DNA of 64,000 nucleotides from an uncultured delta proteobacterium (GTDB lineage Bacteria > Desulfobacterota > Desulfobacteria > Desulfobacterales > B30-G6), in assembly GCA_963823335.1 (NCBI GenBank), contig CAWGLD010000006.1, positions 128,314-192,313 of the forward strand. The letters run 5' to 3'. How positions within the stretch are numbered: the stretch's first letter is position 1; each line of letters begins with the position of its first letter. Of the stretch, positions 4,635 to 59,481 are shown piece by piece. The position numbers and the translations under genes were made by a program. The notes under the pieces are model-generated. The model was given only the letters and a program-made list of their open reading frames with translations. It had not been told where the DNA came from and did no database searches.

Positions 4635-4671
4635 ATACTTTTTAGAAAAATTTTTTGCAGCAACATATCCA

Positions 4672-5007
4672 ATGGCTATCATGACACTGCACAAAAAACG
4701 AACAGCTTTTTTTCTGATTGCGGGAACACTCGCCATACTTATGCTGTCAGGGACCTTGTCTAGCGCCAAAGATATCACTGGAAACTGGCAGGCGGCAGAT
4801 CTGAAAGAGAACAAAAATTTTTTGTTCTCTTTTGGACCTGAGCATGATTTTTTTATCGAGCCGGAAGTCAATGCTGTGTTTATTGGTGTCGATACCGATC
4901 CATCTCATGCGGACAACGAGGATAACGAGGATAATGAGGATGTCGATTGGAATGTCTATGCAAGCTGCTTTATAACGGGACTGGCGGGTATTTTTGGTTC
5001 ACCATAA
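4672..5007 (+). CDS. hypothetical exported protein with DNE tripeptide repeat
   Basis: 111 aa. The N-terminus is signal-peptide-like (FFLIAGTLAILMLSGTLSSA). An internal DNEDNEDNED is encoded by a 9-nt tandem repeat at about 4912-4940. No recognisable family. Confidence 0.35.
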   Translation: MAIMTLHKKRTAFFLIAGTLAILMLSGTLSSAKDITGNWQAADLKENKNFLFSFGPEHDFFIEPEVNAVFIGVDTDPSHADNEDNEDNEDVDWNVYASCFITGLAGIFGSP

Positions 5008-5070
5008 ACCTGTGTCCGTTCGATGTTCATTCGTTTTTAGCACCCAGTTATCACCCCAGATATATGGACC

Positions 5071-8000
5071 TTAGACTCTCACCTCCAGACAGTCTTCAGC
5101 CAGTATGCTTCCCAGCGTCTCCACGACATCATCGGCATTCTGCTCTGAAAAAACCATGGGCGGTTTCAGTTTCAGAACATTGTGCAGCGGACCATCTGTG
5201 CTGATCAAAATACCGTGCTCCCGTAATCGGTTGATAATATAGCTCGCCTCTTCCGCGGCTGGTTCCAGGGTTTCACGATTTTTTACCAGTTCCACGCCGA
5301 CAAAAAGTCCCTGACCGCGAACATCACCGATCAACGAAAAGCGCTGCTTTAATTTCTTGAAACCCGCTATCAAGCGATGCCCGACAATTCGTGCATTTTC
5401 CTGCAAGTGTTCTTTTTCAATGACATCCAAGACGGCCATGCCGATGGCACATGAAACTGGGTTCCCTCCAAAGGTATTGAAATATTCCATGCCGTTATGA
5501 AACGCTGCTGCTATCTTCGGGGTCGTAACCACCACCGCCATGGGATGCCCATTGCCGATGGGTTTTCCCAGCGTGACAATATCCGGTACGACGTCCTGGG
5601 TTTCAAACGCCCAGAAATGACTTCCAACGCGCCCAAAACCGACTTGGACTTCATCGGCGATACAGACGCCCCCGGCATCCCTGACATGCTGGAAAGCCTC
5701 TTTAAGATAGTTGTCCGGGAGTACAACCTGGCCGCCGCATCCCAGAACGCTCTCACAGATAAAGGCTGCTACGCCATTGCCCTGGGAGGCCACACGGCCG
5801 ATGGCTTTTTTTACATCATGCGCGTATGCTGAACCTATATCGCCACCCTGGCCCTTGAAGGGCCCTCGGTATCCATCCGGCATCTTCACCGTATGTACCC
5901 AGGAGGGGGCTCCGCTACCACCGGGACCAGCATGCTTGTATGGACTGATATCCACAAGCAGATTGGTATTACCATGATAGGCGCCCTCCACCGTAATGAT
6001 ATCTCTTTGCCCTGTATAGGTGCGTGCCAATCGGAAGGCCAGTTCATTGGCTTCACTCCCGGTGCACACAAAAAAGCAGACACGCAACGGCTCGGGAAAT
6101 TTGGACAGCAGTTTTTGGGAGTACGTGATAATATGGTCATGCAGATATCGGGTATTGGTATTGAGTATTCCCATCTGACGTTGTCCGGCGGCAACCACCT
6201 CGGGATGGCAATGCCCCACATGCGTGACATTGTTGACACCGTCCAGATAGGCCTGACCGTTCTGGTCGATGAGGTATTGCCCCCTGCCCCTGACAATTTT
6301 CAGGGGTTCGCTATAGGAAATGCTGTAATTTTTACCGATGTGTTCATTTCGAAAGTCAAGGATTTCCTCCCGGCTCCTTCCCCGTACCGGGAACATACTG
6401 TCGGGTATCCTCAATATCAGGTTAGGATCCGGCGAAAGCGCCTTCCACAACCGTTTCTGGCTTGGGGGAGCCACTCCTTTGTAATTTCCTGTTTCACCCA
6501 GCATGTCCGTAATGATCTGAAAATGAAGATGGGGCGGCCAGCCGCCGTTGACAAGGGTGTCACCAATTTCCGCAAATTTCTTGCCGCAAGCAATCACCTG
6601 GCCGACACTGAGATTTTCCAGAGACGCCAGGCTCAAATGACCGTAAAGTGTGTAGAAGGTGAATCCGTCTTGGGTTTCATGTGAAAGGATGATGGTCGGT
6701 CCGAAGTCATACGCAGCGGCGTTATTGTTAAAACTGTGAACCTTTCCATCATAAAAGGCCCGGATGCTGGATCCGGGCGCCATATATAGGTCGATACCCA
6801 TATGAATCGTACGCATTTCAGACATCTGATCACGCAGTTGCCTGTATGCATCTGAAATATATATGGCTCTGGGCTCACCGTAACAGCCGATACCAATGAC
6901 GGCATCGTTCTTACGAAGCTGCCCGAAAATAGCCTGAGACATGTCCGAGACGTCGTTTTGGCTTGCGACACTATTGACCAGCGGGCTTTCAACACTCAGA
7001 TCGAGCACCATGGATGACCCTTTTCCAGCAGCCGGGTCCACCAGCGGTTCAAAGCGGTCCTTATTGTCCTCAAGCCATTCAATTATTTTTTGCGCGTGAG
7101 GTACCGGTGACATATTGCAGGCATCCCGGAAATGGTATTCAGCAAGTCGCGGGTGAACGTCACTGAGTTGCCTGAGCAGCGTCCAGGCCGGTTTTTCGGA
7201 TATTTGCAGATAGGCGTTGTCCGGTGCCAATCGGGATTGATGGGCGGAGTGGCACACACTCATGCATAATCGCATCAGAATCAGATCCAACAGGACAGAA
7301 AGCTCCATGTCCTCCAGGGGATGCGCCTGGTGATATCCGGCCACAACAGGTTTTACGGCGGAAAGCGGATCTTTTTTATCCATCATGGCATAAGCACATA
7401 CAATGGCCAGTTCATTTATCGTGTGTGTATAAACCATATCACCATAGTCGATGACACCGTCTACCCTGTTTTTCCAGGTGCGATGCGGTGCAACCAGGAT
7501 ATTGTTATCATTACCGTCGTTGTGGATAACGCTCTGTCGCAAGCGGCTTAGTTTTGGCTGGGTGTGCGACTGGTAGCGTGTCAGGAACTTACGGATCATG
7601 GCTTGATTCTCTTTGTCACAAACCATTTCAATCAGACTTTCGATGACCTGGGGTGCCTGCTTGAGATCCCAGTGAAATATCCGGTGAGCCCCAGGATGAT
7701 CAAAGCTGCTGAGGGCAGCATCCAGACATCCGAGGAAAAGACCCAAGCTTTTCAGAAGACCGGCATCATGCGGCTTTACCTTTGAAAATGGCTTTCCAGG
7801 CAGATAGGACAGCATGCGTACATAATGGCTGTCACCTGCAGCGCTGGTAACAGTGTCGATACGTTCCCCATTCCGGGTTGTGCATATCTCGGGACATACG
7901 CACACACCCTCGGGGAATGTATCTTTGTGACGATTCACGTGGATCATGGCCTGGTTTTGAAATTCCAGTGCCTGTTTTTCTTCTGTTTTATTGGCGATCT

Positions 8001-11569: not shown

Positions 11570-12235
11570 TTATGGTGTTACACCAAATCTGAGCCATTTA
11601 AATCTCTTCTGATTATCGATCGACACATATTTTCCAGTACGTGCCATAAATAGATTTTCCGGCTTAAGGCATATATTCGGTTCGTTGGTCTGAAGTTCTT
11701 GAAAGCCAAAAGGATCAAATAATCTGATGAGTATTTTTCGATAAGCCAGTGCAGATTTTGCTGTACCATCCAGATCCCATGTCCAAGAGTACCCCACCAT
11801 ATACACGATCAGTTTCTCCACAATTGAGGGGCGCATCAGCTGCCCCAGGATTCTACCTGCAATCCCGTGGGACCGAAACCGACGGCATATTTCTATGGCT
11901 TTTACCTCCATCATCAATCCGGGCGTCATTTCTTGCCAGCGGTCCCCTTCGTCTGGGGGGCTGAGAACACCAAAACCGATGATATTCTCACCTTCCAATG
12001 CTAAGGTAACATTCGCATTGGCTTGTGATGTATTGTTTTCAAGACTTTCTCTTTTGGTGTAAAGAGACTTGTATTGCGCATGCATGCCAAACTGTCTGTC
12101 AAACGTATAGCGTCGTATCTCTTCCGGTTTGCAGAAAGAGCGGATGCAGATCTTAGGGTTGGAGGGGGTAAGCGCAGGGTTGGAGGGTTGGAGGGGTCGA
12201 GGGTTCGAGGGGGTGTCTTTTGTAGAATATACCAT
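11570..12235 (-). CDS. GNAT acetyltransferase, AcuA-like (start uncertain)
   Basis: 221 aa. YSWTWDLDGTAKSALAYRK and NLFMARTGK resemble recalled B. subtilis AcuA blocks (YYWHWDLKG, NCLMARIGK). The first ~25 codons (PSNPRPLQPSNPALTPSNP) translate a W1 repeat arm, so the true start may be downstream (for example Met at 12085). Confidence 0.6.
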   Translation of the reverse strand: MVYSTKDTPSNPRPLQPSNPALTPSNPKICIRSFCKPEEIRRYTFDRQFGMHAQYKSLYTKRESLENNTSQANANVTLALEGENIIGFGVLSPPDEGDRWQEMTPGLMMEVKAIEICRRFRSHGIAGRILGQLMRPSIVEKLIVYMVGYSWTWDLDGTAKSALAYRKILIRLFDPFGFQELQTNEPNICLKPENLFMARTGKYVSIDNQKRFKWLRFGVTP

Positions 12236-12338
12236 GCAATGATAGCCTTTTAGGGAGTTAGACTGTAGGCTGTTAGGTGCGTATAGCTAAAAGCTCTCAG
12301 CCACCCTCGAACCCTCGAAACCTTGGACCCTCGAACCC
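12153..12338. repeat. W1 hairpin element (full, ~186 bp) with W6-type core
   Basis: The G-rich arm is 12153-12213 and the C-rich arm is 12301-12338 (CCACCCTCGAACCCTCGAAACCTTGGACCCTCGAACCC). The loop contains TTAGACTGTAGGCTGTTAGGTGC, shared with 27540 and 42620. Confidence 0.8.
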
Positions 12339-12343
12339 TTGTT

Positions 12344-12898
12344 TTAAAAATCTGTCCATGTTGAATGCAGTCGTTTGACCATTATCACCATGTCATGGGT
12401 GCCGCCATCCGGGCCGACGGCATAGTTTTGGAGTTCTGCACGTTGAAAAAAATCAAATTTTTTTACGGCCTCGATGGCTGCATCTTCGATGCCTCTGACA
12501 AGATCCGTTCTTAATGTTTCCAGACCTTTGTCCATAGCGGCCTGAATCAAGTCCAGCAATATCCATGTTCCCAGCCGCTTGTTGCGGAATTCCGGCATAA
12601 CGACGATACGGAAACGCCCAACATGCTTGGTAGCACCGAATTCCCTGAAATGTAAACTACCGTGCCCGATCATTTCACTGTTACAGAATGCGATAATGGA
12701 GAACACGGCGCCACTGTCCATGTTTGAAATCCATTTTCGGATAATATCTGGTTTGGTGGTATCATAGCGCATGCACCAACGATCGTTTTCGGGTATTTTT
12801 TTATAAAACCGATTCAGCAGTGATTCGTCCTCCGGTTTCAGTGGACGGATCACTGCTTCTTCACAATCCTTGAGGATACATTCTTTGGGATATCTCAC
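12344..12898 (-). CDS. GNAT family N-acetyltransferase
   Basis: 184 aa. Acetyl-CoA binding motif FRNKRLGTWILLDLIQAA is present. Confidence 0.75.
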   Translation of the reverse strand: MRYPKECILKDCEEAVIRPLKPEDESLLNRFYKKIPENDRWCMRYDTTKPDIIRKWISNMDSGAVFSIIAFCNSEMIGHGSLHFREFGATKHVGRFRIVVMPEFRNKRLGTWILLDLIQAAMDKGLETLRTDLVRGIEDAAIEAVKKFDFFQRAELQNYAVGPDGGTHDMVIMVKRLHSTWTDF

Positions 12899-13081: not shown

Positions 13082-14215
13082 TTATTCTGGTTTCCCCATG
13101 ACCTCTGCAAACATATCCATGTCCCAGCTTCTGCACTCGGCGATGTTCTGTCGAAACTTGATAAAGTCGATGGTATCCTGTCCTGTGATTTTCTTGGTGT
13201 TGAAAGCCCCGAAACCGAGAAACGCCTCTCCGCCCATATTGGCTGCAAGCCAGTGTCTGTGAGAGTTTTTCATGGTATCCCAGAAATATTTTTTCTTCTG
13301 TCGAATACTGTCGATGGACTCCATCAGACAACCCGGAAAAAGATTGGCAAATGTCCACACAATTTTGTCGACTTCCTTGTCCAGAAGTTCAAAATTTGAA
13401 TTGGGTTGATGTTCCTTGACAAAAGCACGCGCCTCTTTCAACGCCTCACCGGTTTTGTATTCACCAAAGACAATCTCACCGTCTTCCACATATTTATCAA
13501 TAGTAATCATGGGGTTTCGGACCCATCCACCATCGATGTTCAGAACCGGGACCACTTTACTGATCAGATTTTTGGCCTTCATTTTATAGGCTGACCACAT
13601 TTCGCAGGAAATGCAGTTCCACATGGAGTCTTCCATACTTAGAAACCACGGCAAAAAGTCTGATGATCCTCCTACCGGAGCAGACCCGTGTTTGGGGCCG
13701 GCCTGCCCATAAATGGCAAGATCCGAAGAAATGGCAAGATCGCAGGCCATACCAATCTCCTGGCCACCTGCCACCCGCATCCCGTTCACACGACAGATAA
13801 CCGGCTTTTTGCAAGCCAGTATGGCATCGACCATATGATTGAACAATTCCATATACTGGCCGTATTCATCTGGGCGGCGGCTGTAATATTCACTGTATTC
13901 TTTTGTATTTCCACCCGTACAGAACGCATAGGGGCCTGTGCCGGTAAAAACAACCGCCACAACGCTGCGATCGAGAGAAGCATTTTCAAAGCCGGCAATC
14001 ACTCCTTTGACCATTTCCGTTGTGTAAGAATTGTACTGTCTGGGATTGTTCAAGCGAATCCATGCAGTGTACAGACCGTCGATCATCTTCCCCGAAGGGT
14101 CCTGCAAGGGCTTTTTCTCGAATACGACACAGGGATCTTTGCTCCCCCAGTGTCCTTCCTCATGTAATTGGTGATCTTTTTTTTCGTTGTCGCGCGGCAT
14201 CCAGTCTAAAGCCAT
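13082..14215 (-). CDS. oah: 6-oxocyclohex-1-ene-1-carbonyl-CoA hydrolase (ring-cleaving, Oah/BamA type), crotonase superfamily
   Basis: 377 aa, unusually long for a crotonase and the length expected for Oah/BamA. It has a crotonase core (FCTGGN, VAGGQEIGMACD). It lies directly downstream of a Zn-ADH-type had-like gene, as in benzoyl-CoA pathway clusters. Confidence 0.7.
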   Translation of the reverse strand: MALDWMPRDNEKKDHQLHEEGHWGSKDPCVVFEKKPLQDPSGKMIDGLYTAWIRLNNPRQYNSYTTEMVKGVIAGFENASLDRSVVAVVFTGTGPYAFCTGGNTKEYSEYYSRRPDEYGQYMELFNHMVDAILACKKPVICRVNGMRVAGGQEIGMACDLAISSDLAIYGQAGPKHGSAPVGGSSDFLPWFLSMEDSMWNCISCEMWSAYKMKAKNLISKVVPVLNIDGGWVRNPMITIDKYVEDGEIVFGEYKTGEALKEARAFVKEHQPNSNFELLDKEVDKIVWTFANLFPGCLMESIDSIRQKKKYFWDTMKNSHRHWLAANMGGEAFLGFGAFNTKKITGQDTIDFIKFRQNIAECRSWDMDMFAEVMGKPE

Positions 14216-14389: not shown

Positions 14390-15493
14390 CTAGAAATCGG
14401 GCACCAGCACGATTCTTTTGTCCGGCGACTTCGTGTGTGCTTCTTCAAAAGCAGCTGCAATCGTACTCATGGGACGGGTCTGAACAAAAGGTTTCATATC
14501 GATCTTTCCTGAAAGAACCATTCCGAGAACCTGTGGATAATATTCCGGCAGGCATCCCCAGGTGCCGATGATTTCAGCATCAAATGCCATAAGGCGACTG
14601 ATGGAATATTCGAGTTTTTGCATACCAAAGCCCACAATGATCAATTTTCCTGTAAAGCTGAGGAGCCCCAGAGCGGTTTCCTGCCCGGGCTTGCTGCCGG
14701 TGACCTCGAAGATCTTCCATCCATAAGCAGGGAGATGTTTCTGCTTTCTCAGGGCTTTGATTTCATCCGAGATGTCTCTGGGCCCTTTGCCGGTGGCATT
14801 GATAGCCACATCAGCGCCGTAGTTTTGAATTTGTTCCAAGCGTTTTTCATCGATATCCACGGCGATAACGCATCCAGCCCCAAGCGCCTTGGCTATCTGA
14901 ACCATATACTGCCCAACACCACCGATACCGATGACAATAACGTTGTCACCGATTTGGAGATCGGCTCTTTTGGCTGCCTGAAACGGGGTTGTTGCGGCGT
15001 CCGCCACAACGGCCAGATGGGCCAAGGGAATCTCTCCCCTGCCCTTGATTTCACACAGATCAATACTCGGCACGGGTATGTGGCTTGAAAAACCTCCATA
15101 AATTCCGATACTGTTGCCAGGCATTTTCTGACTCAAGCACCGGTTTCCCCTGCCGGTTTTACACAAATGGCAACGACGGCACGGCATGACGGCTGGTATC
15201 AGGACTTCCTTTCCTATCCAGGCATCATCACCGGCTACCACGGTACCGGATATTTCGTGCCCAAGTGTCAAGGGAGGTTTTGAGACAGTTGGAACGCCAT
15301 CATAAAAGTAACCAAGATCCGTGTGGCAGACACCACAACCGGCGACTTCCACCAGTACATCCTGAGGCATCAAATCGGGAATTGGAAGTACTTTTTTTTC
15401 AATTTTTCCCGGAATGATTTCATTGGTCTCTTTGTTTCGGGTTGTCGGTTTTACCATTTGCCAGGTCTGGATCTGCTCGGGCATTTTTGCCAT
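14390..15493 (-). CDS. had: 6-hydroxycyclohex-1-ene-1-carbonyl-CoA dehydrogenase-like Zn-dependent alcohol dehydrogenase
   Basis: 367 aa. Zn-ADH motifs GCGVCHTDL and GHEISGTVV and the Rossmann motif GIGGVGQY are present. The specific assignment rests on synteny with oah. Confidence 0.65.
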   Translation of the reverse strand: MAKMPEQIQTWQMVKPTTRNKETNEIIPGKIEKKVLPIPDLMPQDVLVEVAGCGVCHTDLGYFYDGVPTVSKPPLTLGHEISGTVVAGDDAWIGKEVLIPAVMPCRRCHLCKTGRGNRCLSQKMPGNSIGIYGGFSSHIPVPSIDLCEIKGRGEIPLAHLAVVADAATTPFQAAKRADLQIGDNVIVIGIGGVGQYMVQIAKALGAGCVIAVDIDEKRLEQIQNYGADVAINATGKGPRDISDEIKALRKQKHLPAYGWKIFEVTGSKPGQETALGLLSFTGKLIIVGFGMQKLEYSISRLMAFDAEIIGTWGCLPEYYPQVLGMVLSGKIDMKPFVQTRPMSTIAAAFEEAHTKSPDKRIVLVPDF

Positions 15494-15583
15494 GCTCTAC
15501 CTCCTTGTTTTGACAGAATAAATTGTTCTGTAAATTTATGAATGCAAACCTAGTTCTTCTGCAATGAGTTGAAGTTATAATTT

Positions 15584-15598
15584 AGCTATAATGTAACT
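15584..15598. promoter_or_regulatory. AGCT-N7-AACT candidate operator (one half degenerate)
   Basis: AGCTataatgtAACT, overlapping the candidate -10 of the had-oah promoter. Confidence 0.3.
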
Positions 15599-15619
15599 TT
15601 TAGAACCATTTAAAGTCAA
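15590..15619 (-). promoter_or_regulatory. candidate promoter for had-oah
   Basis: On the minus strand: TTGACT (15619-15614), 18-nt spacer, TACATT (15595-15590). It is preceded by the same 25-nt hairpin as the 20724 promoter. Confidence 0.35.
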
Positions 15620-15760
15620 TAATAAAATCGCTTCGCGTTTTTATCTGCGCGAAATGGGCTCGCTGTTGACGTTCAAAACCAAGACAAGCAGCGTCAGGGT
15701 AAAATGACATTCCAAGTCTAAATCCTGCCTCCTGGCATCGGTGTGGCCATCATTTTTCTC

Positions 15761-15788
15761 TTGACTATTTATGTAGCTAATATATAGC
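15761..15788 (+). promoter_or_regulatory. candidate promoter for the SDR-thiolase-DUF35-hydratase operon
   Basis: TTGACT (15761-15766), 16-nt spacer, TATAGC (15783-15788). The -10 is weak. Confidence 0.3.
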
Positions 15789-15789
15789 T
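15775..15789. promoter_or_regulatory. AGCT-N7-AGCT candidate operator
   Basis: AGCTaatatatAGCT, overlapping the candidate -10 of the SDR operon promoter. Confidence 0.35.
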
Positions 15790-15907: not shown

Positions 15908-16660
15908 ATGAAATTAGAGGGAAAAATCGCATTGGTAACCGGAAGTAGCCGCGGTGTCGGCAAAGCCGTAGCGCTCGGTTTTGCAGCGAGTGGGGCGGAT
16001 GTGGTAATCAACTACACCTCCAATCAGACTGCCGCCGATGGCGTGGTCTCAGAAATTCAATCCATGGGTCGTTCGGCGGTGGCTGTAAAGGCAGATGTTG
16101 CCGTCAAGGCGGATGTGGAGCGTCTTGTTGACACCGCTGTGGAGAAGTTTGGGAAACTCGATATTCTGGTCAACAATGCCGGATTTACCCGGCCTGCCAT
16201 GATGGTAAAAATGAGTGAAGAACAGTGGGATCAGGTGGTGGATATCCATTTGAAAGGCGCTTTTATGTGTTCCCAGGCTGCAGGAAAGGTGATGAAGGAA
16301 CAAAACAGCGGAAAGATTATCAACGTGACCTCGGTAGCCGGAATTGTGGGAACCGTAGGTCAGATCAATTACAGCGCCGCCAAGGGCGGGATCATCAGCA
16401 TGACCAAATCCATTGCCCGGGAAATGGCAAGATACAATGTTTGTGCCAATGTTATCTCTTTGGGGATCGTGGCAACAGACATGACCGAAAAGATCAGGAC
16501 CGATGAAAAACTAAAAGAAATTTATATGAATCGTATCCTGCTCAAACGTTTTGCAGAACCAGATGACATATCGCCCGCTTTTGTCTTTTTTGCCTCTGAT
16601 GATAGTAATTACATCACCGGGCAGCTGGTGTGTGTAGATGGTGGGTACGGAATGATCTAA
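15908..16660 (+). CDS. short-chain dehydrogenase/reductase (FabG-like 3-oxo/3-hydroxyacyl reductase)
   Basis: 250 aa. TGSSRGVGKA, NNAG and YSAAKGG motifs are present. Confidence 0.85.
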   Translation: MKLEGKIALVTGSSRGVGKAVALGFAASGADVVINYTSNQTAADGVVSEIQSMGRSAVAVKADVAVKADVERLVDTAVEKFGKLDILVNNAGFTRPAMMVKMSEEQWDQVVDIHLKGAFMCSQAAGKVMKEQNSGKIINVTSVAGIVGTVGQINYSAAKGGIISMTKSIAREMARYNVCANVISLGIVATDMTEKIRTDEKLKEIYMNRILLKRFAEPDDISPAFVFFASDDSNYITGQLVCVDGGYGMI

Positions 16661-16662
16661 AA

Positions 16663-16703
16663 ATAAAATCGTTGCACGATTTTATCTGGCGCGACTTCGT
16701 CGC
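16663..16703. repeat. W8 bipartite hairpin
   Basis: ATAAAATCG-TTGCA-CGATTTTAT, then CTGGC, then GCGAC-TTC-GTCGC, starting 3 nt after the fabG-like stop. Copies are at 34596, 38598 (reverse complement), 54003 and 20680 (reverse complement). Confidence 0.75.
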
Positions 16704-16783
16704 TTTAAGAAGGTACCGTTCTTCAATTTGTTTGGCGTTTCGATAGTCGAATTTAAAGTTTATCAACAGAGGAGAATCTACGT

Positions 16784-17950
16784 ATGAGTAAAGTAGCTAT
16801 CATCGGCGTCGGTCAGAGCACATTTGTTCGATCGTACCCCGGCTCCATTCGGGAGCTTGTCTTCGAAGGATTTAAAGACTGCATGCAGGATGCCCAGATC
16901 GCTGCCAGCGACATCGACGCATCGATTGTCTGTTCGGCTCCCGAATATGACAAGCAACGATCTCCGGCAGGTGTTTTTGCAGAATACCTGGGCCTGAATC
17001 CACAACCGACATTCTATGTCGAAAGTCTCTGTTCCTCCAGCACAACAGGGTTGAAACTGGCTTATTCCCTTGTCAAATCAGGACTTCACGACGTTGTGGC
17101 CGTTCTCGGCTTTCAAAAAATGTCCGAGATCTCCTCTTCGGAATCCCAGGAAAGGATGGGACGTGGGGCGGATATTCAATGGGAAAGCCCGTTTGGCACC
17201 ATGATGCCGGCGTATTATGCCATGTACGCCAGGGCATACCTGGAACGTTATGGCGCCAGTCTGGATGACCTTGCCCTGATACGAGTAAAAGCCGCAACCT
17301 ACGGCCAGATCAATGAAAAGGCCGTGTATCGAAAACCGGTTACATTTGAAATGTTCCAGGATCCCGAAAATATCATGGGAAGACCCGTATCGACACCCCT
17401 TCGGGTTGGCGATTGCTGCGCAAATGCGGATGGCAGTTCGTGCATCATCGTGGCTAGCGAGGAAAGAGCCAAATCCTTGTGTTCCAAACCCGTCTGGATT
17501 ATGGGTTTGGGTTCAGCTACCACCAGTGTGAACCTGGCCGGCAGAGATCTTTTTTCGGGTCTTTCGGTCGCACAGCACGCTGCCAGTCAAGCTTATAACA
17601 TGGCCGGGATTACACCCAAACATGTGGATGTTGCTGAGGTGCACGACTGTTTTACCATCGCTGAAATGATGGCATATGAAAATCTCGGCTTTGCCGAGCC
17701 AGGAGAAGGAAAAGATCTCATTAAAGGAAAGGAAACCTACAAAGAGGGAAGTATTCCTGTTAATGTTGATGGGGGGCTGCTCTCGAAAGGACATCCCATA
17801 GGGGCAACCGGTGGATCCCAGGTGCGAACCATTGTTTTACAGCTCAGGGACGAGGCCGGTGATATTCAGGTAAAAAATCCCGAAATCGGTCTGATCCATA
17901 ATATTGGCGGTGTCGGACTCTACGGGAATGTGACCATACTCGGACGTTAA
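16784..17950 (+). CDS. SCPx-type thiolase (thiolase domain protein)
   Basis: 388 aa. It has the active-site region SLCSSSTTG and the C-terminal HPIGATGG. It is followed by a DUF35 partner gene. Confidence 0.8.
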   Translation: MSKVAIIGVGQSTFVRSYPGSIRELVFEGFKDCMQDAQIAASDIDASIVCSAPEYDKQRSPAGVFAEYLGLNPQPTFYVESLCSSSTTGLKLAYSLVKSGLHDVVAVLGFQKMSEISSSESQERMGRGADIQWESPFGTMMPAYYAMYARAYLERYGASLDDLALIRVKAATYGQINEKAVYRKPVTFEMFQDPENIMGRPVSTPLRVGDCCANADGSSCIIVASEERAKSLCSKPVWIMGLGSATTSVNLAGRDLFSGLSVAQHAASQAYNMAGITPKHVDVAEVHDCFTIAEMMAYENLGFAEPGEGKDLIKGKETYKEGSIPVNVDGGLLSKGHPIGATGGSQVRTIVLQLRDEAGDIQVKNPEIGLIHNIGGVGLYGNVTILGR

Positions 17951-18006
17951 TTTATATATCATATCAGATTCTTAACAATATCAGATTTGTCAATAATCTT
18001 GTAAAT

Positions 18007-18103
18007 GGGTTCGAGGGATCAAGGATTCAAGGGTTCAAGTGTGGCTGAGGGCTAAAAGCAGACAGCGGCATCCAGGCCTTCAAGCATCCTCGCTTCCCAG
18101 CAT
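18007..18103. repeat. chimeric element: W1-type G arm + core + W12 right arm
   Basis: GGGTTCGAGGGATCAAGGATTCAAGGGTTCAAG, then GTGGCTGAGGGCTAAAAGCAGACAGCGG, then CATCCAGGCCTTCAAGCATCCTCGCTTCCCAGCAT. The two arms belong to different word families. Confidence 0.65.
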
Positions 18104-18116
18104 ACATGGAGGTAAC

Positions 18117-18551
18117 ATGGGAAAAAAAAATGAAATAGATGCTCGTTTTAATAAATTCGGAACAGTCAGTTTTACTGCGACCACCAAAACAAATGACTTT
18201 ATCGACTTCCTGGAGGAGGGAAAGGTCATGGGGTCTCGTTGCACGAGTTGCGGTCTTGTGTTTTTCCCTCCCAGAGCAGATTGCCACCATTGTTTGGGAA
18301 ACGAAATGGAGTGGTTCGAGGTAACAGGTACCGGCAAACTTGTCACCTACAGTAAGCTGACATTTGCGCCCATCGGCTTTGAAGACGACGTGCCCTACTG
18401 TATCGCACTTCTGGACTATGGTGCATTTAAAATTTTTGGGAGAATAGCATCCGGGTTTCCGGACGAAGAGTTACAGATCGGTATGGACATGAAAACAAGC
18501 GCCAACACACTTTCAAACGGCCAGTTGAATTATGTGTTTGGCCGGGCATAA
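18117..18551 (+). CDS. DUF35 OB-fold / Zn-ribbon protein (thiolase partner, BbsA-like)
   Basis: Zn ribbon CTSCGLVFFPPRADCHHC followed by an OB-fold region. I moved the start from the ORF-track 18039 to the ATG at 18117, which is preceded by GGAGG at 18109-18113. Upstream codons translate repeat DNA. Confidence 0.75.
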   Translation: MGKKNEIDARFNKFGTVSFTATTKTNDFIDFLEEGKVMGSRCTSCGLVFFPPRADCHHCLGNEMEWFEVTGTGKLVTYSKLTFAPIGFEDDVPYCIALLDYGAFKIFGRIASGFPDEELQIGMDMKTSANTLSNGQLNYVFGRA

Positions 18552-18585
18552 CACGAATAAGCCGGCTAAGAATATGTTTTATTTA

Positions 18586-18670
18586 ACACGAAATCACGAA
18601 AAAGACCGTGAACAATTTCGTGTTTTTCAGATTTATCCTTTACGGATACTTCGTGCGTGTTTTCGTGATT
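18586..18670. repeat. W3 element, reverse-complement copy
   Basis: CACGAAAAAGACCGTGAACAATTTCGTGTTTTTCAGATTTATCCTTTACGGATACTTCGTGCGTGTTTTCGTGATT aligns nearly base-for-base with the reverse complement of 12971-13071. Confidence 0.8.
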
Positions 18671-18756
18671 GTTTTCTATTACTGTTGCCAGAAAATCATT
18701 TTTTTCAGTTGTGTGACTAAAACAGTATAAAACCATCAAACCCAAGGATTTTAAAC

Positions 18757-19524
18757 ATGACCGACAAAACGATTGTCATCGAAAAATCAGACAGTGTTGC
18801 AACCGTTTATTTTGCAAGACCCAAGCACAACGTGTTCAACATCGACATGATGAATCTTTTCTGCGAGACCCTGGAGGACCTGTCCAAAGATCCTGATATT
18901 AAATGCCTGGTAATAAGGGGTCAAGGTTCGAGCTGGTGTGCCGGCGTCGATGTGGGCGACCACAAACCGGAGATGGCCGATCAGATGATTACAACCTTTA
19001 ACCGTTCCCTGCTGCTTTTGGAATCTCTCGATGTGCCCACCGTGGCGGCCGTACACGGTGCCTGTCTGGGCGGCGGCATGGAATACGCCATTGCGTGCGA
19101 CGTAATCATCGCCGGAGAAAGAGCGAAATTCGGGCAGCCTGAGGTGAAACTAGGATTTCTGCCGCCCTACGCAGCCATTCGTCTGCCTAAGCTGGTAGGA
19201 CCGGCCAAAGCTATTGAAATCTGCTGCTCCGGCAAAGTCTACAGCGCCGATGCAGCCAAATCCATGGGTTTTGTCAGCCTGACCGTTCCGGATGATCAAT
19301 TTGATGCGGCCGTTGATGACTGGCTTGAAGACATTCAGGCAAGCAGTCCGTTAATTCTTCGCCTCAACAAACAGGCCGTGACGCAACATCTCGGCATGAG
19401 AACACCAGAATCATTGCAAAGTGTCGGCAACCTGTTTCTCAACACCCTCATGCAAACAGAGGACACGCTGGAAGGTATTGCCAGTTTTTACGAAAAGAGA
19501 AGACCGAACTGGAAGAATAAATAG
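18757..19524 (+). CDS. enoyl-CoA hydratase/isomerase family protein (possible dienoyl-CoA hydratase)
   Basis: 255 aa. Crotonase fold with SWCAGVDVG and GACLGGGMEYAIACD. The Dch-like role is only a contextual guess. Confidence 0.75.
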   Translation: MTDKTIVIEKSDSVATVYFARPKHNVFNIDMMNLFCETLEDLSKDPDIKCLVIRGQGSSWCAGVDVGDHKPEMADQMITTFNRSLLLLESLDVPTVAAVHGACLGGGMEYAIACDVIIAGERAKFGQPEVKLGFLPPYAAIRLPKLVGPAKAIEICCSGKVYSADAAKSMGFVSLTVPDDQFDAAVDDWLEDIQASSPLILRLNKQAVTQHLGMRTPESLQSVGNLFLNTLMQTEDTLEGIASFYEKRRPNWKNK

Positions 19525-19548
19525 ATAGGCTGTAGGCTTCTATCCTGA

Positions 19549-19773
19549 ATGAAGATGACTCGCGAACAAATACTCAAAAACGAAGGCTGGACAAAACAAT
19601 CCTCCCACGATGAACCCCGCCTGTCCGATATTGTAGAAATGTACGAAGAGATCGGGCTAGAAGTTCTTCTTGAGCCCTTTAACCCGGATGAAGAACCCGG
19701 ATGTACAGATTGCATGCGGGGGTCCGCCCGTAATTACAAGACGATTTACACACGTGATAAACTCAGAATTTAG
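19549..19773 (+). CDS. hypothetical small protein
   Basis: 74 aa ORF tightly spaced after the hydratase gene. It contains a CTDC motif. No family recognised. Confidence 0.4.
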   Translation: MKMTREQILKNEGWTKQSSHDEPRLSDIVEMYEEIGLEVLLEPFNPDEEPGCTDCMRGSARNYKTIYTRDKLRI

Positions 19774-19854
19774 GGGTGGAGGTTTGAAGGGTTGACTGAA
19801 AGCCATCAGCGTTTAGTCACCCTCCACCCCTTCAAACCTCCGACCCTCAAACCC
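19773..19854. repeat. W1 compact hairpin element
   Basis: GGGGTGGAGGTTTGAAGGGTTGAC, loop TGAAAGCCATCAGCGTTTAG, then TCACCCTCCACCCCTTCAAACCTCCGACCCTCAAACCC. It begins on the last base of the TAG stop at 19771-19773. Confidence 0.85.
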
Positions 19855-19879
19855 ATTTCTGTATACCGGGAGCAACACA

Positions 19880-20494
19880 ATGAACTCAATAAACACAAAG
19901 AACCCAAAAAACGCCGCAGCTGAATCTCCCGCCCTTCTCATTATCGACATGGTTAAAGACAACTTCAAGAAAGAAAGAAACCTTCCCATCACACCTCTGG
20001 CGATAAAAACCATCGATCCTTTGAATCAGATCATCCGTTTTTTCCGTTCCCATGCATGGCCGGTTGTTTTTTCAACAGACGCATTCAATAAAAACGACTT
20101 TATCTTTACCGGTAGAATGCTGCCCCATTCGCTGGCCGGAACCGAAGGTGCAGAAGTGGTTGACGCGCTGGATTTTCAGGATACAGATACCTGGCTCCCC
20201 AAACCGCGGTTTTCAGCATTTTTCAAAACCGGACTCGAGAAGATGTTACATGATCGGGGAATTACACTTTGCGCGGTCGCTGGTATCGCCACACCCTTTT
20301 GTGTACTGACAACTGCCATGGATGCCCTGTGCCATGACTTCAAGGCCGTCATTCTAGAAAACTGCTCTACGGCATTTTCAGATGACTTGCACCAGCAAAC
20401 GCTGAGCCTCTATCGGCGCAATCCCCTTTATCCCCTCTTTCGTATCATGACATCCTCTGAACTGATGAATGAACTCAGCCCTGGCATTTCATAG
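19880..20494 (+). CDS. isochorismatase-family cysteine hydrolase
   Basis: 204 aa. ALLIIDMVKDNF and the catalytic Cys context GIATPFCVLTTAMDA are present. Confidence 0.8.
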   Translation: MNSINTKNPKNAAAESPALLIIDMVKDNFKKERNLPITPLAIKTIDPLNQIIRFFRSHAWPVVFSTDAFNKNDFIFTGRMLPHSLAGTEGAEVVDALDFQDTDTWLPKPRFSAFFKTGLEKMLHDRGITLCAVAGIATPFCVLTTAMDALCHDFKAVILENCSTAFSDDLHQQTLSLYRRNPLYPLFRIMTSSELMNELSPGIS

Positions 20495-20723
20495 ATACCC
20501 GGATCTGTTTTTATCCTGTAAGGGGTTTGACTACCGAATAACATCTCCTTTGATATAGAATTATACCGTTTGTCCTAATATTATTCCGAAAATAGGATGG
20601 CGGCATACGGGGTTGTAGCAGAAAAAGGCCCTCAATCGGAACGTTTATCTGACAACCCCTTATACGCTCTTGATGTTACTTGCGGCAAAGCCGCCTAAGA
20701 TAAAAACGCGCAGCGATTTTATC

Positions 20724-20752
20724 TTGACTTAACCGTTTTGTAGCTGTAATGT
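20724..20752 (+). promoter_or_regulatory. candidate sigma70-type promoter upstream of the ior cluster
   Basis: TTGACT (20724-20729), 17-nt spacer, TAATGT (20747-20752). It lies directly after a W8-type hairpin. Confidence 0.45.
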
Positions 20753-20756
20753 AGCT
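20742..20756. promoter_or_regulatory. AGCT-N7-AGCT candidate operator overlapping the -10
   Basis: AGCTgtaatgtAGCT. The same AT-spacer design occurs at 15775-15789, 15584-15598 and 38445-38470. Confidence 0.35.
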
Positions 20757-20839
20757 TCAATTAAATGTATAATCGAAGAGCACCCAGGATCAGATACAAG
20801 GGCCTCTTCCCGGCAAGAAATCGATCTGATTGATTCTTT

Positions 20840-21118
20840 TGCATTCCCCTTAGGTTCTGCCTTGCGGCAATACTTCGCATGCTGCGGGGTTAGCGAGCGA
20901 GTCAACTACCACCCGTGAAACGGGTGGCTTGGATTTCCCCCAAAATGGGGGAAAAACAAAGGAGACGGCACGTCTCCGCAAGTTCAGGTTCGGAGCCGCG
21001 TGCCAAGCACGCGGTTTGTAGAACAATCAAAATTAGACAGAATTCCTTACGGTCGCTGCGAAGCACTTCCGGACGGCAGAACATTCCTCGTAGCTTGCTG
21101 CGAGGTTCTTCAATCGTT
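20840..21118 (+). repeat. T13 twin-hairpin element interrupted by Q125 insertion
   Basis: 20840-20900 (..CATGCTGCGGGGTTAGCGAGCGA) and 21029-21118 (AAAATTAGACAGAATTCCTTACGGTCG..ATTCCTCGTAGCTTGCTGCGAGGTTCTTCAAT) are contiguous in the uninterrupted copy at 27615-27733 (reverse complement). Confidence 0.7.
20901..21028 (+). mobile_element. Q125 four-hairpin element, copy A
   Basis: 128 nt with four consecutive stems: CCACCCG/CGGGTGG, TTCCCCC/GGGGGAA, GGAGACG/CGTCTCC and CCGCGTG/CACGCGG. It matches the reverse complement of 23250-23375 except for 2 substitutions and 2 one-base indels. Confidence 0.7.
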
Positions 21119-21173
21119 ATCCAAATATGTTCGTAAAACACTTTTATTCCCCATAAATCTTAAGGAAACGACC

Positions 21174-23023
21174 ATGCACAAATTACTCACTGATGAGCCG
21201 GGCAAGAAAATGCTTCTTCTCGGAAATGAGGCCATCGCCAGAGGTGCCATCGAAGCAGGTGTCGCCTTTGCCACAACCTATCCAGGAACGCCGTCTTCTG
21301 AAATATCCCTTGCTCTTTTCCAGATGTCTCAGCAGTGCGACCTCTACTTCGAGTACAGCACAAATGAAAAAGTGGCCCTTGAAGTTGCTGCTGGAGCTGC
21401 CAATTCAGGTGTCAAAACCATGTGCATGATGAAACATGTGGGCTTGAATGTTGCAGCAGATCCACTCATGACCCTTGCTTACGTGGGTGTCAAAAGTGGT
21501 CTCGTCATCTTGACTGCAGATGACCCCTTTATGTTTTCGAGCCAGAATGAGCAGGACAACCGCTATTACGGAAAACTTTCGGGTTTGTCGATCATTGAGC
21601 CGTCTTCGGTGGAAGAAGCCAAGGAAATGATCCCTTATGCCTTTGATCTTTCACTAAAACTAAAGGAACCTGTCCTCTTCCGCACCACCACCCGCATTAA
21701 TCACTCCACAGGAATTGTCACCCTTGGTCCCATAGAGGAACGTATTACCAAGGGTACTTTTACAAAAGACCCGTTCAACTTGGTAACAGTGCCTGCTGTT
21801 TCACGAAAACTTCATGTCAAACTCCTGGATAACATTCAGAAAGCCCAGGAAATATCTGAGACATCAGAATACAATTTTTCTTCTGGTAATGGCCCTTGGG
21901 GTGTTGTCTGTAACGGAGTTAGTTACAATTACGTATGCGATGCCATCAAGGATCTGGGGATCGAAGATAAAACCAAACTCCTGCGAATCGGTTTTTCCCA
22001 TCCCTTGCCGGAAAAACGTATCCAGGAATTTATTTCCAGCTGTGAAAAAATACTCGTGGTCGAAGAAGGCGAACCCTTTATGGAAGAGGCCATCAGGTCA
22101 TTTGCACAGGAAATCCAGAGCACCATTCCCATCCAGGGAAAAGGTGAAGGGCTTTTCAGCCAACTTTATGAATTTGACCCCGCCCTGGTCAGGAGGGTTA
22201 TGGGCAAGTTCTTTGGGGTTCCCGTTTCAACGGCTGTGATTCCTGATCTGACCGATGTGCCGGAAATTCCCCAACGGCCGCCCAATCTGTGTGCGGGATG
22301 CTCCCACCGTGCCACTTTTTATGCTGTGGGAAAGGCGCTTGAAGGCCAAGAAACCATTTATCCAACCGATATCGGTTGTTACACACTCGGCTTTCTCCCC
22401 CCCTGTCCAAGGGTGATTTTCTCATTTGCATGGGTTCCTCAGTAAGCACATCCTGCGGGTTCTCAAAAACAACCGATAAAAAAGTCATTTCCTTTATCGG
22501 AGATTCTACATTCTTTCACTCCGGAATAACGGGGCTTGTCAATGCTGTCTTCAACAACCATAACTTCACTTTGATCATTCTCGACAACGGTACTACGGCC
22601 ATGACCGGGCATCAGCCCAACCCAGGTGTGGACATGGGCAATTTTAATCTGACCGATTTTGGCCGTATATCCATTGAAGAACTTGTCAAAGGAATCGGTG
22701 TAAAACATATCTCGAAAATCAAACCCTTCAGATTAAAAAAGAGCATACAGGCGATTAAAGACGCTGTAGCCTACGAGGGTGTCTCAGTAATCATAGCAGA
22801 AGAAATCTGTACCTTATACGCCAAGGGTTTGAAACAGTTAAAGGCCCGCCCCTTCCATGTAACCGACAAATGCAAGGACCATAAGGATTGTATCAGCAGT
22901 TTGGGATGCCCTGCATTTTTTATTGACGAGGGCCGTGTCAAAATTGATCCCGAGATATGTGTGGGATGTGCTGTCTGTGCTCAGATATGCCCTGAAAATG
23001 CAATATTGCCCATGAAATCATAG
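21174..23023 (+). pseudogene. iorA: indolepyruvate:ferredoxin oxidoreductase alpha subunit, interrupted by a frameshift in a C7 run (22397-22403)
   Basis: ORF 21174-22445 ends ...TDIGCYTLGFLPPCPRVIFSFAWVPQ*. The frame shifted by -1 continues LSPPLSKGDFLICMGSSVSTSCGF ... GDSTFFHSG ... CVGCAVCAQICP to 23023. Joined at the C run they give a contiguous ~616-aa IorA with TPP and 2x[4Fe-4S] regions. The start was moved to the ATG at 21174 (MHKLLTDEPGKKMLLLGNEA). Confidence 0.8.
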
Positions 23024-31321: not shown

Positions 31322-31376
31322 CTCATAGCCTTTAGCTGTTAGATAGCTATCAGCTAAGGGCTAACAGCTATGAGCT
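31320..31376. repeat. W6 hairpin (AGCTCATAGC..GCTATGAGCT)
   Basis: AGCTCATAGCCTTTAGCTGTTAG, loop ATAGCTATCAGCTAAGGG, then CTAACAGCTATGAGCT. It starts inside the TAG stop (31319-31321). Confidence 0.8.
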
Positions 31377-59472: not shown

Positions 59473-59481
59473 TTTCAAGTA

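Follow-up and report, generated by a model that had tools for sequence, protein, structure and literature searches.

The REP/BIME elements of Enterobacteria and Pseudomonas are short imperfect palindromes that occur in many copies, strictly extragenic and in both orientations, at gene ends and intercistronic sites. They form mosaic units with a second motif, and their stem pairing is kept by covariation. Correia elements of Neisseria, dispersed hairpin-forming repeats 100-155 bp long that are bounded by terminal inverted repeats and duplicate a TA target, have ends that abut or contribute promoter hexamers and may influence neighbouring genes. UP elements of sigma-70 promoters are A/T tracts at -38 to -59 that are contacted by the RNA polymerase alpha subunit. 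At the Azoarcus PN promoter, the benzoyl-CoA-responsive repressor BzdR uses TGCA-N6-TGCA operators (PMC6678401).

For the window, the 64,000-nt stretch of DNA analysed here, the original prediction was that a hairpin followed by TTGACT forms a portable promoter module that builds a regulon from three catabolic gene sets (had-oah, ior and Mo-enzyme genes) or, alternatively, that a dispersed repeat stands next to a -35 box by chance. The hairpin shares the above features of REP/BIME elements. It is unlike them in that its arms are A/T-rich rather than G+C-rich and the palindrome 5' end has no GTAG-type head, its flanks being GTTAT, GTTTC or AAC; no RAYT transposase was seen in the window, where Pfam scans returned no transposase domain. 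It is also dispersed and hairpin-forming in the manner of Correia elements, and one of its subfamilies precedes TTGAC, but the unit is only 23-45 nt long and has no recognised target duplication, and at the window loci the -35 was there before the repeat. The promoters, in turn, resemble the targets of BzdR: self-complementary tetramers about one helical turn apart overlap the core promoter, several operators occur per regulon, and the genes governed belong to the anaerobic benzoyl-CoA pathway. As with BzdR, the motif overlaps the -10 or start region of several functionally linked operons across species. In contrast to BzdR, the tetramer is AGCT with a spacing of 7 and an 11-bp period, not TGCA-N6-TGCA, the hosts are Desulfobacteraceae with class II (Bam) enzymes, and no BzdR-like gene was found nearby. 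As in UP elements, an A/T-rich segment lies directly upstream of the -35, and the ATTTTAT arm of the hairpin occupies the position of the T or A run seen in 19 of 19 hairpin-less promoters; we presume that this segment is not close to the published UP consensus. The reading that we favour, and hold to be reasonably probable, is that two things are superimposed in the window: a dispersed REP/BIME-like repeat and conserved sigma-70-type promoters with AGCT operators.

The hairpins and their repeat family

The hairpins at had and ior, and the features that compose them, are as follows.

15622-15646, minus strand: had hairpin copy, reading AGATAAAAACGCGAAGCGATTTTAT, then TA, then TTGACT (plus-strand positions 15614-15619)
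15622-15646, minus strand: arms of the had copy, AGATAAAAACGC-GAA-GCGATTTTAT, with an A.A mismatch at stem position 7
20698-20722, plus strand: ior hairpin copy, reading AGATAAAAACGCGCAGCGATTTTAT, then C, then TTGACT (20724-20729)
20682-20722, plus strand: ior compound repeat, with the GC hairpin GCGGC-AAA-GCCGC (20682-20694), the linker CTA and the 25-mer AGATAAAAACGC-GCA-GCGATTTTAT

The two 25-mers are identical at 24 of 25 positions. With up to three mismatches allowed, the 25-mer occurs at two places only in the window, and 100 shuffles gave 0 matches; the sequence and the shuffles confirm both copies as first described, with TTGACT after 2 nt at had and 1 nt at ior. As DNA the had copy folds at -5.3 kcal/mol (z -3.7), and in a 51-nt RNA context its hairpin was not the minimum-energy fold. 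The ior compound repeat folds as RNA at -19.1 kcal/mol (z -3.4).

The 25-mer belongs to an intergenic palindrome family that is common in uncultured Desulfobacterales. The core of this family is a 23-nt palindrome, ATAAAAWCG-N5-CGWTTTTAT, which forms a 10-bp stem and a triloop: the outer arms (ATAAAAT, ATTTTAT) are A/T-rich and invariant, the G+C inner stem is short, and the triloop is mostly GNA. The window holds four strict copies, against 0.16-0.3 expected, and four variants (at 23012, 34596, 38616 and 54003), a total of eight in 64 kb, all intergenic. The fourth strict copy (16663-16685) and the four variants had been overlooked in the first reading. A scan of 185,579 species genomes found the palindrome at at least 114 loci and, among the matches listed, these belong nearly all to Desulfobacterales or Desulfobacteraceae MAGs. 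Watson-Crick pairing joins spacer positions 1 and 5 in 92 of the 121 copies (56 expected), with T-A and C-G covariation (Fisher p=1.1e-11), both among the matches listed, and stem changes that compensate each other occur in related promoters (TCAC/GTGA in L116, TCA/TGA in L156). Palindrome DNA folds range from -5.3 to -8.9 kcal/mol (z -3.7 to -6.8).

Where these copies lie bears on what they are. With ORFs at the at least 114 loci called crudely, as longest ORFs without a gene finder, 41 of 100 copies among the matches listed fall within 25 nt of a gene 3' end, often providing its TAA stop codon. Other copies separate a stop codon from the ribosome-binding site that follows it, or border tRNA ends, and tRNA genes are directly followed by copies in L038 and L060. 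The palindrome is usually accompanied by a GC hairpin, GCGRC-N3-GYCGC: in the window each of the 6 has a palindrome 3-6 nt away, and elsewhere the two are paired in 56 of 121 copies among the matches listed, under a strict hairpin test. Such compound units in the window include the following.

16663-16703, minus strand: compound repeat separating the SDR gene from the thiolase gene, made of palindrome 16663-16685 and GCGAC-TTC-GTCGC 16691-16703, beginning 3 nt past the SDR stop codon
23012-23053, plus strand: variant palindrome and GC hairpin at the iorA 3' end
34596-34636, plus strand: variant palindrome and GC hairpin at the thiolase gene 33409-34599, whose stop codon they overlap
54003-54043, plus strand: variant palindrome and GC hairpin, 3 nt past the permease gene 53116-54000

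Given its gene-end, intercistronic and tRNA-side positions, its hairpin and its pairing with the GC hairpin, the palindrome is therefore a REP/BIME-like repeat and not a regulon-specific site, with no special tie to aromatic catabolism. The observation is real, but its hairpin part is fairly ordinary. The two-hairpin family itself appears to be undescribed so far: a full-text literature search returned no earlier description, and an Rfam scan of the whole window gave no family at its gathering score. By extrapolation, the repeat would reach hundreds of copies per genome.

Promoters, operators and their conservation

Beside these hairpins lie predicted promoters and operators of a shared design.

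15614-15619, minus strand: predicted -35 TTGACT of the had-oah promoter, also present in related had promoters, whether these have the hairpin or lack it
15590-15595, minus strand: predicted had -10 TACATT, after an 18-nt spacer (TTGACT-18-TACATT, 9/12 to consensus)
15573-15598, minus strand: had operator AGTT-N7-AGCT-N7-AACT, overlapping the -10 and the predicted start site
15753-15789, plus strand: predicted divergent SDR-thiolase-hydratase promoter, with T-tract 15753-15757, TTGACT 15761-15766, N8 and AGCTAATATATAGCT 15775-15789
20724-20756, plus strand: predicted ior promoter core, TTGACT 20724-20729, 17-nt spacer, TAATGT 20747-20752
20742-20756, plus strand: ior operator AGCT-N7-AGCT, AGCTGTAATGTAGCT, within the ior promoter core
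26-bp operator sequence: AGCTAATATATAGCTAATATGTAACC

The had operator may be read as a 26-bp near-palindrome or as three 11-bp-phased tetramers. Exact AGCT-N7-AGCT occurs 5 times in the window (0.43 expected), and triple-tetramer sites scoring at least 10/12 occur 8 times, all intergenic (0.36 expected); the operator is present at four promoters. One of these, at 15761-15789 and divergent from had, had escaped the first reading. Three matches were rejected as promoter-type sites: that at 31334 lies inside a 57-nt AGCT-rich imperfect palindrome, and those at 27623, a copy of the CCYCGYAGCWWGCTRCGRGG repeat, and 48211 are both in G+C-rich hairpin sequence.

The predicted ior -10, TAATGT, is weak (3/6), and TTGACT-17-TAATGT, at 8/12, falls below the promoter-scan threshold; promoter-like matches in the region are no more numerous than in shuffles. 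The predicted promoters appear to draw their real support from conservation in relatives and not from scan scores. Related had promoters keep TACAT down to a Had identity of about 78%, TAATGT is invariant in relatives of ior, and the SDR-thiolase-hydratase promoter is near-identical in L116, L117, L118, L120, L141 and L157. The strain contig L001, at 99% identity to the window, is too close for footprinting. The predicted -10 boxes at 17-18 nt and the AGCT-N7-AGCT/AACT sites overlapping them were found as proposed, and they are conserved across relatives.

The third site precedes the genes of a Mo enzyme resembling 4-hydroxybenzoyl-CoA reductase.

38387-38409, plus strand: perfect palindrome copy, 38 nt past the stop of ORF 37942-38349, followed by TTGCAT
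38436-38470, plus strand: predicted promoter of the 4-hydroxybenzoyl-CoA-reductase-like Mo-enzyme genes, TTCACA-17-TATAAT 38436-38464 (11/12)
38445-38470, plus strand: triple operator AGCT-N7-AGCT-N7-AGCT
38598-38638, plus strand: another compound repeat, located in the leader of the Mo operon immediately upstream of the ribosome-binding site and made up of GCGAC-GAA-GTCGC and the variant palindrome ATAAATTCGTAGAACGAATTTAT

In L159 and L162 the equivalent palindrome overlaps the stop codon of the counterpart of ORF 37942-38349, and in L160 and L161 a repeat occupies the same leader position as that at 38598-38638. The hairpin and TTGCAT are present as claimed, but the promoter geometry of had and ior is not, because the best sigma-70 match starts 26 nt downstream of the hairpin. 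TTGCAT is unlikely to be the Mo-enzyme -35, given this 11/12 promoter, a -10 between the second and third AGCT that is conserved in five relatives, and the retention of TTGCA(A/T)T without the hairpin in L160.

The hairpin is also dispensable elsewhere. The had promoter is found without it in L120, L122-L124, L126-L128, L130 and L132, with the -35 and operator region kept, more weakly in L122 and L123; the Mo-enzyme promoter is found without it in L160. Desulfosarcina alkanivorans and Desulfonema magnum have the T-tract, TTGACT, N12 and the operator without any hairpin, and the 21-mer AGCTGTAATGTAGCTTCAATT of the ior promoter also precedes the SDR operon of Desulfonema magnum. Since the same promoters exist without the hairpin, TTGACT belongs to the promoter and not to the repeat. 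In each of the 19 hairpin-less operator promoters, at least four T or A stand in a run no more than 11 nt from the -35. In L117 and L157, where the had hairpin is degenerate, its proximal arm GATTT(T/A)AT is retained, and hairpin decay leaves just the T-rich arm beside the -35. Hairpin-less and hairpin-bearing promoters (L120 or L160 versus the window) differ beyond the repeat, with no clean duplication visible.

The operator, as AGYT-N7-AGCT, is conserved across genera, with 30 distinct sites in related loci that include two cultured genera and bamB promoters. The protein encoded by the bamB gene that it precedes elsewhere matches PDB 4z3w chain A (E=4e-254), and in L042 an OYE-family gene follows the operator. 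The gap between operator and -35 is variable (N3/4, N8, N11/12, N14/15), as expected for an operator and not for a core promoter element. What the predicted aromatic-degradation promoters really share is a T-tract, TTGACT and a candidate AGCT-N7-AGCT operator. The regulon would be built by the operator, not by the hairpin. Of the original prediction, then, the promoters and the AGCT site stand, while the specificity of the hairpin for the three gene sets does not: a hairpin-plus-promoter module as builder of the regulon is not supported, the hairpin being lineage-wide at gene ends, between cistrons and at tRNAs and absent from the same promoters in relatives. The alternative offered with it, a dispersed repeat happening to abut a -35, is nearer the evidence.

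Near-identity of the two hairpins and other readings

Both window copies carry a rare A at stem position 7 (the A.A mismatch), found in 1 of 121 family copies among the matches listed, and both have a 5' AG; the hairpins of related contigs have T at this position at both promoters. Linkers to the -35 are locus-specific (TA at had, C at ior), and in L157, which carries both promoters, the had and ior hairpins are not alike. The 24/25 identity is peculiar to the window's lineage. The near-identity is best explained not by descent from one common promoter cassette but probably by recent homogenisation through gene conversion, in which some 25 nt would have passed from the ior copy to the had copy.

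A purely passive repeat offers no explanation for the recurring 1-3 nt adjacency of hairpin and promoter, seen at 4 of 4 ior loci and in the TTGNN that follows 8 of 20 C-GNA-G copies among the matches listed. This adjacency could mean that the C-GNA-G repeat subfamily, with its T-rich 3' arm, plus TTGAC is a portable promoter cassette, an UP-like element with a -35 that, moving as copies from locus to locus, would create promoters or strengthen them in the manner of Neisseria Correia elements, a reading that we regard as unlikely. Among the matches listed from unrelated MAG loci, TTGNN lies within 5 nt of those 8 of 20 C-GNA-G copies versus 4 of 36 other oriented copies (p=0.018), and TTGA[CT] is found at offset 3 in 7 of 248 flanks versus about 1 at other offsets. 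Five unrelated MAG loci (L009, L036, L064, L082, L103) have the order GC hairpin, GTTAT, palindrome, AAC, TTGAC. The hairpin adjoins the -35 at ior in 4 of 4 close relatives, the block from hairpin to promoter being conserved while its flanks are unalignable; at had it does so clearly in the window, its strain L001, L116, L118, L121 and L141. The 23-nt palindrome spans about -37 to -59, roughly the position of an UP element. However, had, ior-type and SDR promoters in other genera and contigs have their TTGACT but no hairpin, so the -35 came first at these loci. Most copies, at gene ends and intercistronic, have no promoter room or promoter-like sequence, several AAC-TTGAC copies have no plausible -10 at 16-18 nt (flanks judged by eye), and the Mo-enzyme promoter is 26 nt further downstream.

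A more doubtful version makes the C-GNA-G subfamily a mobile promoter-building module that spreads by short-tract gene conversion via T-tract/TTGACT microhomology, the had/ior identity being a fresh trace of it. The module may be ordered as GC hairpin, palindrome whose core GCGAAGC is a known, very stable DNA mini-hairpin, T-rich arm and TTGAC. If true, it would supply an UP-like element, and sometimes a -35, that tunes or rewires catabolic operons in uncultured sulfate reducers.

We give still less weight to the idea that the two-hairpin unit acts as an insulator or terminator with a promoter, blocking upstream (isochorismatase side) or antisense read-through and giving regulated promoters a clean background. 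Many copies do lie exactly at gene 3' ends, with a modestly U-rich tail after the GC hairpin in that orientation (16691-16709, GCGACTTCGTCGCTTTAAG; L157, GCGACGTTGTCGCTCTTTTATT), tRNA genes in L038 and L060 are directly followed by copies, and the ior unit sits between two same-strand gene sets. But the ior unit has the opposite orientation to gene-end copies and no U-tract on either strand, had has no same-strand gene upstream to terminate, and an efficient stop would do harm at the copies between iorA and iorB and before ribosome-binding sites. The inner G+C stem of the palindrome is just 3-4 bp. We reject the palindrome as a canonical terminator, since a scan found no terminator-like match at 15622-15646, 20682-20722 or 38387-38409, the three promoter-adjacent copies, and orientation to the adjacent gene is inconsistent (11 same, 8 opposite, among the matches listed). 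A dimeric activator site co-regulating the three gene sets would suit a perfect 9-10 bp inverted repeat of fixed spacing that ends 1-2 nt from the -35 at two promoters, but it is very improbable and is disfavoured by the distribution of copies (at least 114 loci whose settings have nothing in common, gene ends and the sides of tRNA genes among them), by the absence of the palindrome from related promoters of other genera that keep the operator, by spacer covariation and compensatory stem changes that point to base pairing and not half-site recognition, and by a substitution in the better half-site in the close strain L001 (99% identical).

A putative regulator and its operator

In the favoured reading, of a repeat superimposed on conserved promoters, the had-oah, SDR-thiolase, ior-paaK and Mo-enzyme gene sets would each be driven by a sigma-70-type promoter of one design: a T or A run just upstream of the -35, TTGACT, and two or three AGCT-like tetramers at 11-bp intervals. 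This operator, overlapping the -10/start region, would bind a putative repressor, and its presence before bamB also suggests a repressor of the benzoyl-CoA pathway, which may respond to an intermediate of that pathway. In the window's lineage, the had and ior promoters each have a copy of the repeat abutting their -35, where its promoter-proximal arm ATTTTAT takes the place of the T-tract, may play an UP-like role, and is the sole part kept upon hairpin decay.

Neither the window ORFs nor the 10-kb flanks of L156-L158, L163 and L164 gave a helix-turn-helix regulator. Besides sensor kinases, the search of window ORFs and neighbours yielded just a protein with a receiver domain alone (60342-60893), a conserved GNAT protein and an unknown protein of 211-221 aa. 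An AAA_33 kinase-like gene beside the Desulfosarcina cluster has no DNA-binding domain in the part within the locus, whose end cuts the gene. This local absence is compatible with a regulator encoded outside the searched window and flanks.

Telling a generic genome repeat apart from the regulatory signal prevents the false definition of a regulon by its hairpin. The repeat family should be masked in motif searches, and could serve for binning or typing of these MAGs. The T-tract/TTGACT/AGCT-N7-AGCT design precedes bamB, had-oah, SDR-thiolase, ior-paaK and 4-hydroxybenzoyl-CoA-reductase-like enzyme genes, and spans Desulfonema, Desulfosarcina and uncultured relatives. For anaerobic benzoate degradation, the specific regulators named in PMC6678401 and PMC4424350 are those of Rhodopseudomonas, Azoarcus and Geobacter only, and a 2025 study that infers conserved regulation in Desulfobacteraceae yielded no such motif to a term search of its text (PMC11887813). 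The 26-bp site is thus a ready bait for the regulator.

Hairpins, predicted operators and genes in the window

The 25-mers on which the original prediction rested differ at one of 25 positions (15646-15622, minus strand, against 20698-20722, plus strand) and are followed by TTGACT after 2 nt and 1 nt, respectively, as it had stated. With up to three mismatches the 25-mer had no further match in the window, and none in 100 shuffles. Its palindromic core, ATAAAAWCG-N5-CGWTTTTAT, has four strict copies (15622, 16663, 20700 and 38387; 0.16-0.3 expected) and four variant copies (23012, 34596, 38616 and 54003), and all six GC hairpins of the form GCGRC-N3-GYCGC adjoin a palindrome. There are five exact AGCT-N7-AGCT sites, where 0.43 would be expected. 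Scored as three tetramers, eight positions reach 10/12 or better (0.36 expected); all are intergenic, and six of them fall in four predicted promoters.

Genes of the cluster in the window
13082-14215, minus strand, oah
14390-15493, minus strand, had
15908-20494, plus strand, SDR, thiolase, DUF35-like, enoyl-CoA hydratase and isochorismatase-like genes
from 21174, plus strand, iorA, iorB, PaaK-like ligase and further CoA-ester enzymes
38654-42573, plus strand, Fer2/FAD/Mo enzyme (matches 4-hydroxybenzoyl-CoA reductase alpha best, with 753 bits, a score under the curated cut-off)

Among the products of the 64-kb window, no DNA-binding regulator was found. A GNAT acetyltransferase gene and a gene for a 211-221-aa protein without clear family adjoin the cluster here (11570-12898), in Desulfosarcina alkanivorans (L163:2138-3411) and in Desulfonema magnum (L164:153-1461); no DNA-binding domain was detected in either protein. 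Downstream of transporter genes, 56915-60893 encodes two kinases, one of them a PAS/GAF histidine kinase, and a receiver protein of 183 aa whose C-terminal 70 residues have no family assignment; together they may form a signalling module. The iorA gene (21174-23023) is read in two overlapping frames, 21174-22445 and 22376-23023, and the best 120 homologues are all single proteins of ~616 aa; the split is a frameshift, through assembly error or pseudogene formation.

A dispersed repeat of the Desulfobacterales

When each species was represented by a single genome, the palindrome was found at no fewer than 114 loci, nearly all in Desulfobacterales or Desulfobacteraceae MAGs. Among the matches listed, the first and last bases of the unconstrained 5-nt spacer form Watson-Crick pairs in 92 of 121 copies, where base frequencies predict 56, and T-A (52) and C-G (39) outnumber T-G (11) and C-A (9; Fisher p=1.1e-11). 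The element is thus a hairpin whose 10-bp stem is capped by a triloop, mostly GNA (TNC on the opposite strand). Also among the matches listed, 41 of 100 copies lie within 25 nt of a gene 3' end, often providing the TAA stop; many others sit between a stop codon and the following ribosome-binding site, with too little room for a promoter, and two adjoin tRNA ends. The copies keep no consistent orientation towards the gene beside them (11 same, 8 opposite), and about half of the listed copies have a GC hairpin, itself with a covarying stem, 3-6 nt away. An Rfam search of the window gave no match.

By its behaviour, the palindrome is a REP/BIME-like repeat: a dispersed hairpin at gene boundaries with a coupled second motif. 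It differs from classical REPs in having A/T-rich arms and no GTAG head. As DNA, the four strict copies fold at -5.3 to -8.9 kcal/mol (z -3.7 to -6.8); in RNA context the had hairpin is not the minimum-energy fold, and a terminator scan gave no match at the three promoter-adjacent copies. At gene ends, the palindrome could possibly attenuate transcription weakly or stabilise 3' ends.

Other repeats were also seen. Members of a second family, the hairpin CCYCGYAGCWWGCTRCGRGG flanked by conserved sequence, occur at 21086, 27624, 27691 and 56721; at a number of MAG loci (L031, L049, L057, L066, L107) this hairpin comes after the palindrome and its GC partner, which suggests longer mosaic units. 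The ior leader (20757-21173) measures ~418 nt, compared with roughly 95-230 nt in the related loci L156-L158, and its additional length is made up of a patchwork of small hairpins of other types (20909-20927, 20961-20977, 20999-21014 and 21086-21105). Between ADP-forming acyl-CoA synthetase and CoA ligase genes, at 31319-31377, there is an imperfect palindrome of 57 nt that is rich in AGCT, AGCTCATAGC...GCTATGAGCT; similar stretches rich in CTGTTAGC occur in L008, L035 and L156.

Promoters with and without the hairpin

Among 40 metagenome loci encoding Had relatives, the close ones L116, L118, L121 and L141 have the hairpin, TA, TTGACT, N15 and AGTTACATTATAGCTAATNTATAACT. The hairpin is degenerate in L117 and L157 and lacking in L120, where two divergent -35 boxes lie just 8 nt apart. 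At more distant loci (L124, L126-L128, L130, L132), TTGACA occurs together with the same operator region but without a hairpin; TTGACT persists in L122 and L123, where the operator is weaker. At three loci syntenic with ior (IorA identity 87-88%), an invariant block runs GCGGC-GNA-GCCGC, a linker of 5 nt with AG at its end, palindrome, C, TTGACT, TAACCGTTTTGT (L158 differs by one substitution) and AGCTGTAATGTAGCT. Flanks are unalignable on either side, and the inner stem and loop vary with compensation (e.g. TCA/TGA in L156). No hairpin accompanies the promoters of two cultured genera: upstream of oah, Desulfosarcina alkanivorans reads T9-C-TTGACT-N12-AGCTAATATATAGCTAATATGTAACC, and upstream of the SDR gene, Desulfonema magnum reads T7-GC-TTGACT-N12-AGCTGTAATGTAGCTTCAATTTAGCT. 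The latter promoter includes the 21-mer found in the ior operator of the window.

Four of five relatives of the Mo-enzyme promoter carry the hairpin (L160 does not), and all five have AAAAAATAGTAT, a -35-like hexamer and AGCT-N7-AGCT, with a -10 directly after the second AGCT (TATAAT, TATGTT, TACAAT, TATATT or TACTAT). The TTGCAT noted earlier beside this hairpin is present in the window; the best predicted promoter, however, TTCACA-17-TATAAT (38436-38464, 11/12 to consensus), starts 26 nt past the hairpin, and TTGCAT is therefore probably not its -35. Upstream of this operon, an ORF at 37942-38349 (135 aa, no family match, cysteine-rich tail CGGGCDCGCDCDC) is kept in L159-L162, and in L162 an IS element (3989-5148; HTH_Tnp_1 and rve integrase) separates the FAD and Mo subunit genes.

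Both window copies of the had and ior hairpin have A at stem position 7, giving an A.A mismatch seen in one of 121 other family copies among the matches listed; corresponding hairpins of related contigs have T there at both promoters. Both are preceded by AG (AT or CT in related had copies), the linkers to the -35 are locus-specific (TA for had, C for ior), and the two hairpins of L157, which bears both promoters, are unalike. The simplest reading would be a recent conversion of ~25 nt in the window's lineage, from the ior to the had copy, from which the 24/25 identity would stem.

A passive repeat does not fully account for the 1-3 nt adjacency to the -35. Of 248 oriented flanks, 7 have TTGA(C/T) at offset 3, compared with ~1 at other offsets, and TTGNN follows within 5 nt of 8 of 20 copies of the C-GNA-G loop subfamily against 4 of 36 other oriented copies (p=0.018), both among the matches listed; the window's had and ior copies belong to this subfamily. 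Five unrelated MAG loci have in common GC hairpin, GTTAT, palindrome, AAC and TTGAC. We therefore retain, as unlikely, the alternative that this subfamily spreads as a module combining an UP-like element with a -35, i.e. a promoter cassette; as a novel reading, such spreading seems to us quite improbable. The suggestion that a hairpin module builds a three-set regulon is not borne out, given the same promoters without hairpin in relatives and the palindrome's dispersal across Desulfobacterales MAGs. The observation stands and its interpretation is partly supported.

A predicted operator

What recurs in relatives and cultured genera is the promoters with their AGCT-N7-AGCT site. Among the loci compared there are 30 distinct sites of the form TTGAC(T/A), N3-15, AGYT-N7-AGCT, at genes including had, SDR and ior. 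Sites with a T-tract, TTGAC(T/A) and AGTT-N7-AGCT also lie upstream of bamB (L125:4161, L127:6757, L132:5580, L144:2307), whose product matches PDB 4z3w chain A (E=4e-254, residues 1-446); these would extend the predicted regulon to the ring-reduction step by class II benzoyl-CoA reductase. At L042:302-340, TTGACA and a triple AGCT-N7-AGCT-N7-AGCT precede an OYE-family Fe-S flavoenzyme gene; this contig, binned as Anaerolineales, bears the Desulfobacterales palindrome and may therefore be mis-binned.

The core, RT-AGYT-AMWWTRT-AGCT-AWWTTRT, often followed by AACY or AGCT, comprises two or three units in 11-bp phase. How far it lies from the -35 depends on promoter class (3/4, 8, 11/12 or 14/15 nt), so the motif is predicted to be an operator, not a core promoter element. 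In every case it overlaps the -10/start region, which argues for action in repression. The controlled genes all make or consume benzoyl-CoA-type thioesters, and the proposed logic thus resembles repression by BzdR, which acts on TGCA-N6-TGCA in Azoarcus (PMC6678401), with another tetramer and another spacing here.

Every one of the 19 hairpin-less promoters has a T- or A-run, 4 nt or longer, no more than 11 nt upstream of its -35; in hairpin-bearing ones the arm ATTTTAT takes this place, and an ATTTTAT-type arm is the surviving part of the decayed hairpins in L117 and L157. We infer that the T-rich segment, possibly UP-like, is the selected part and the hairpin as such dispensable. The regulon signal would be a conserved promoter-operator design with a candidate repressor, not the hairpin. 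No specific regulator or motif for Desulfobacteraceae is named in PMC6678401, PMC4424350 or PMC11887813. The predicted operator offers a tangible starting point for studying how this family controls anaerobic degradation of aromatics.
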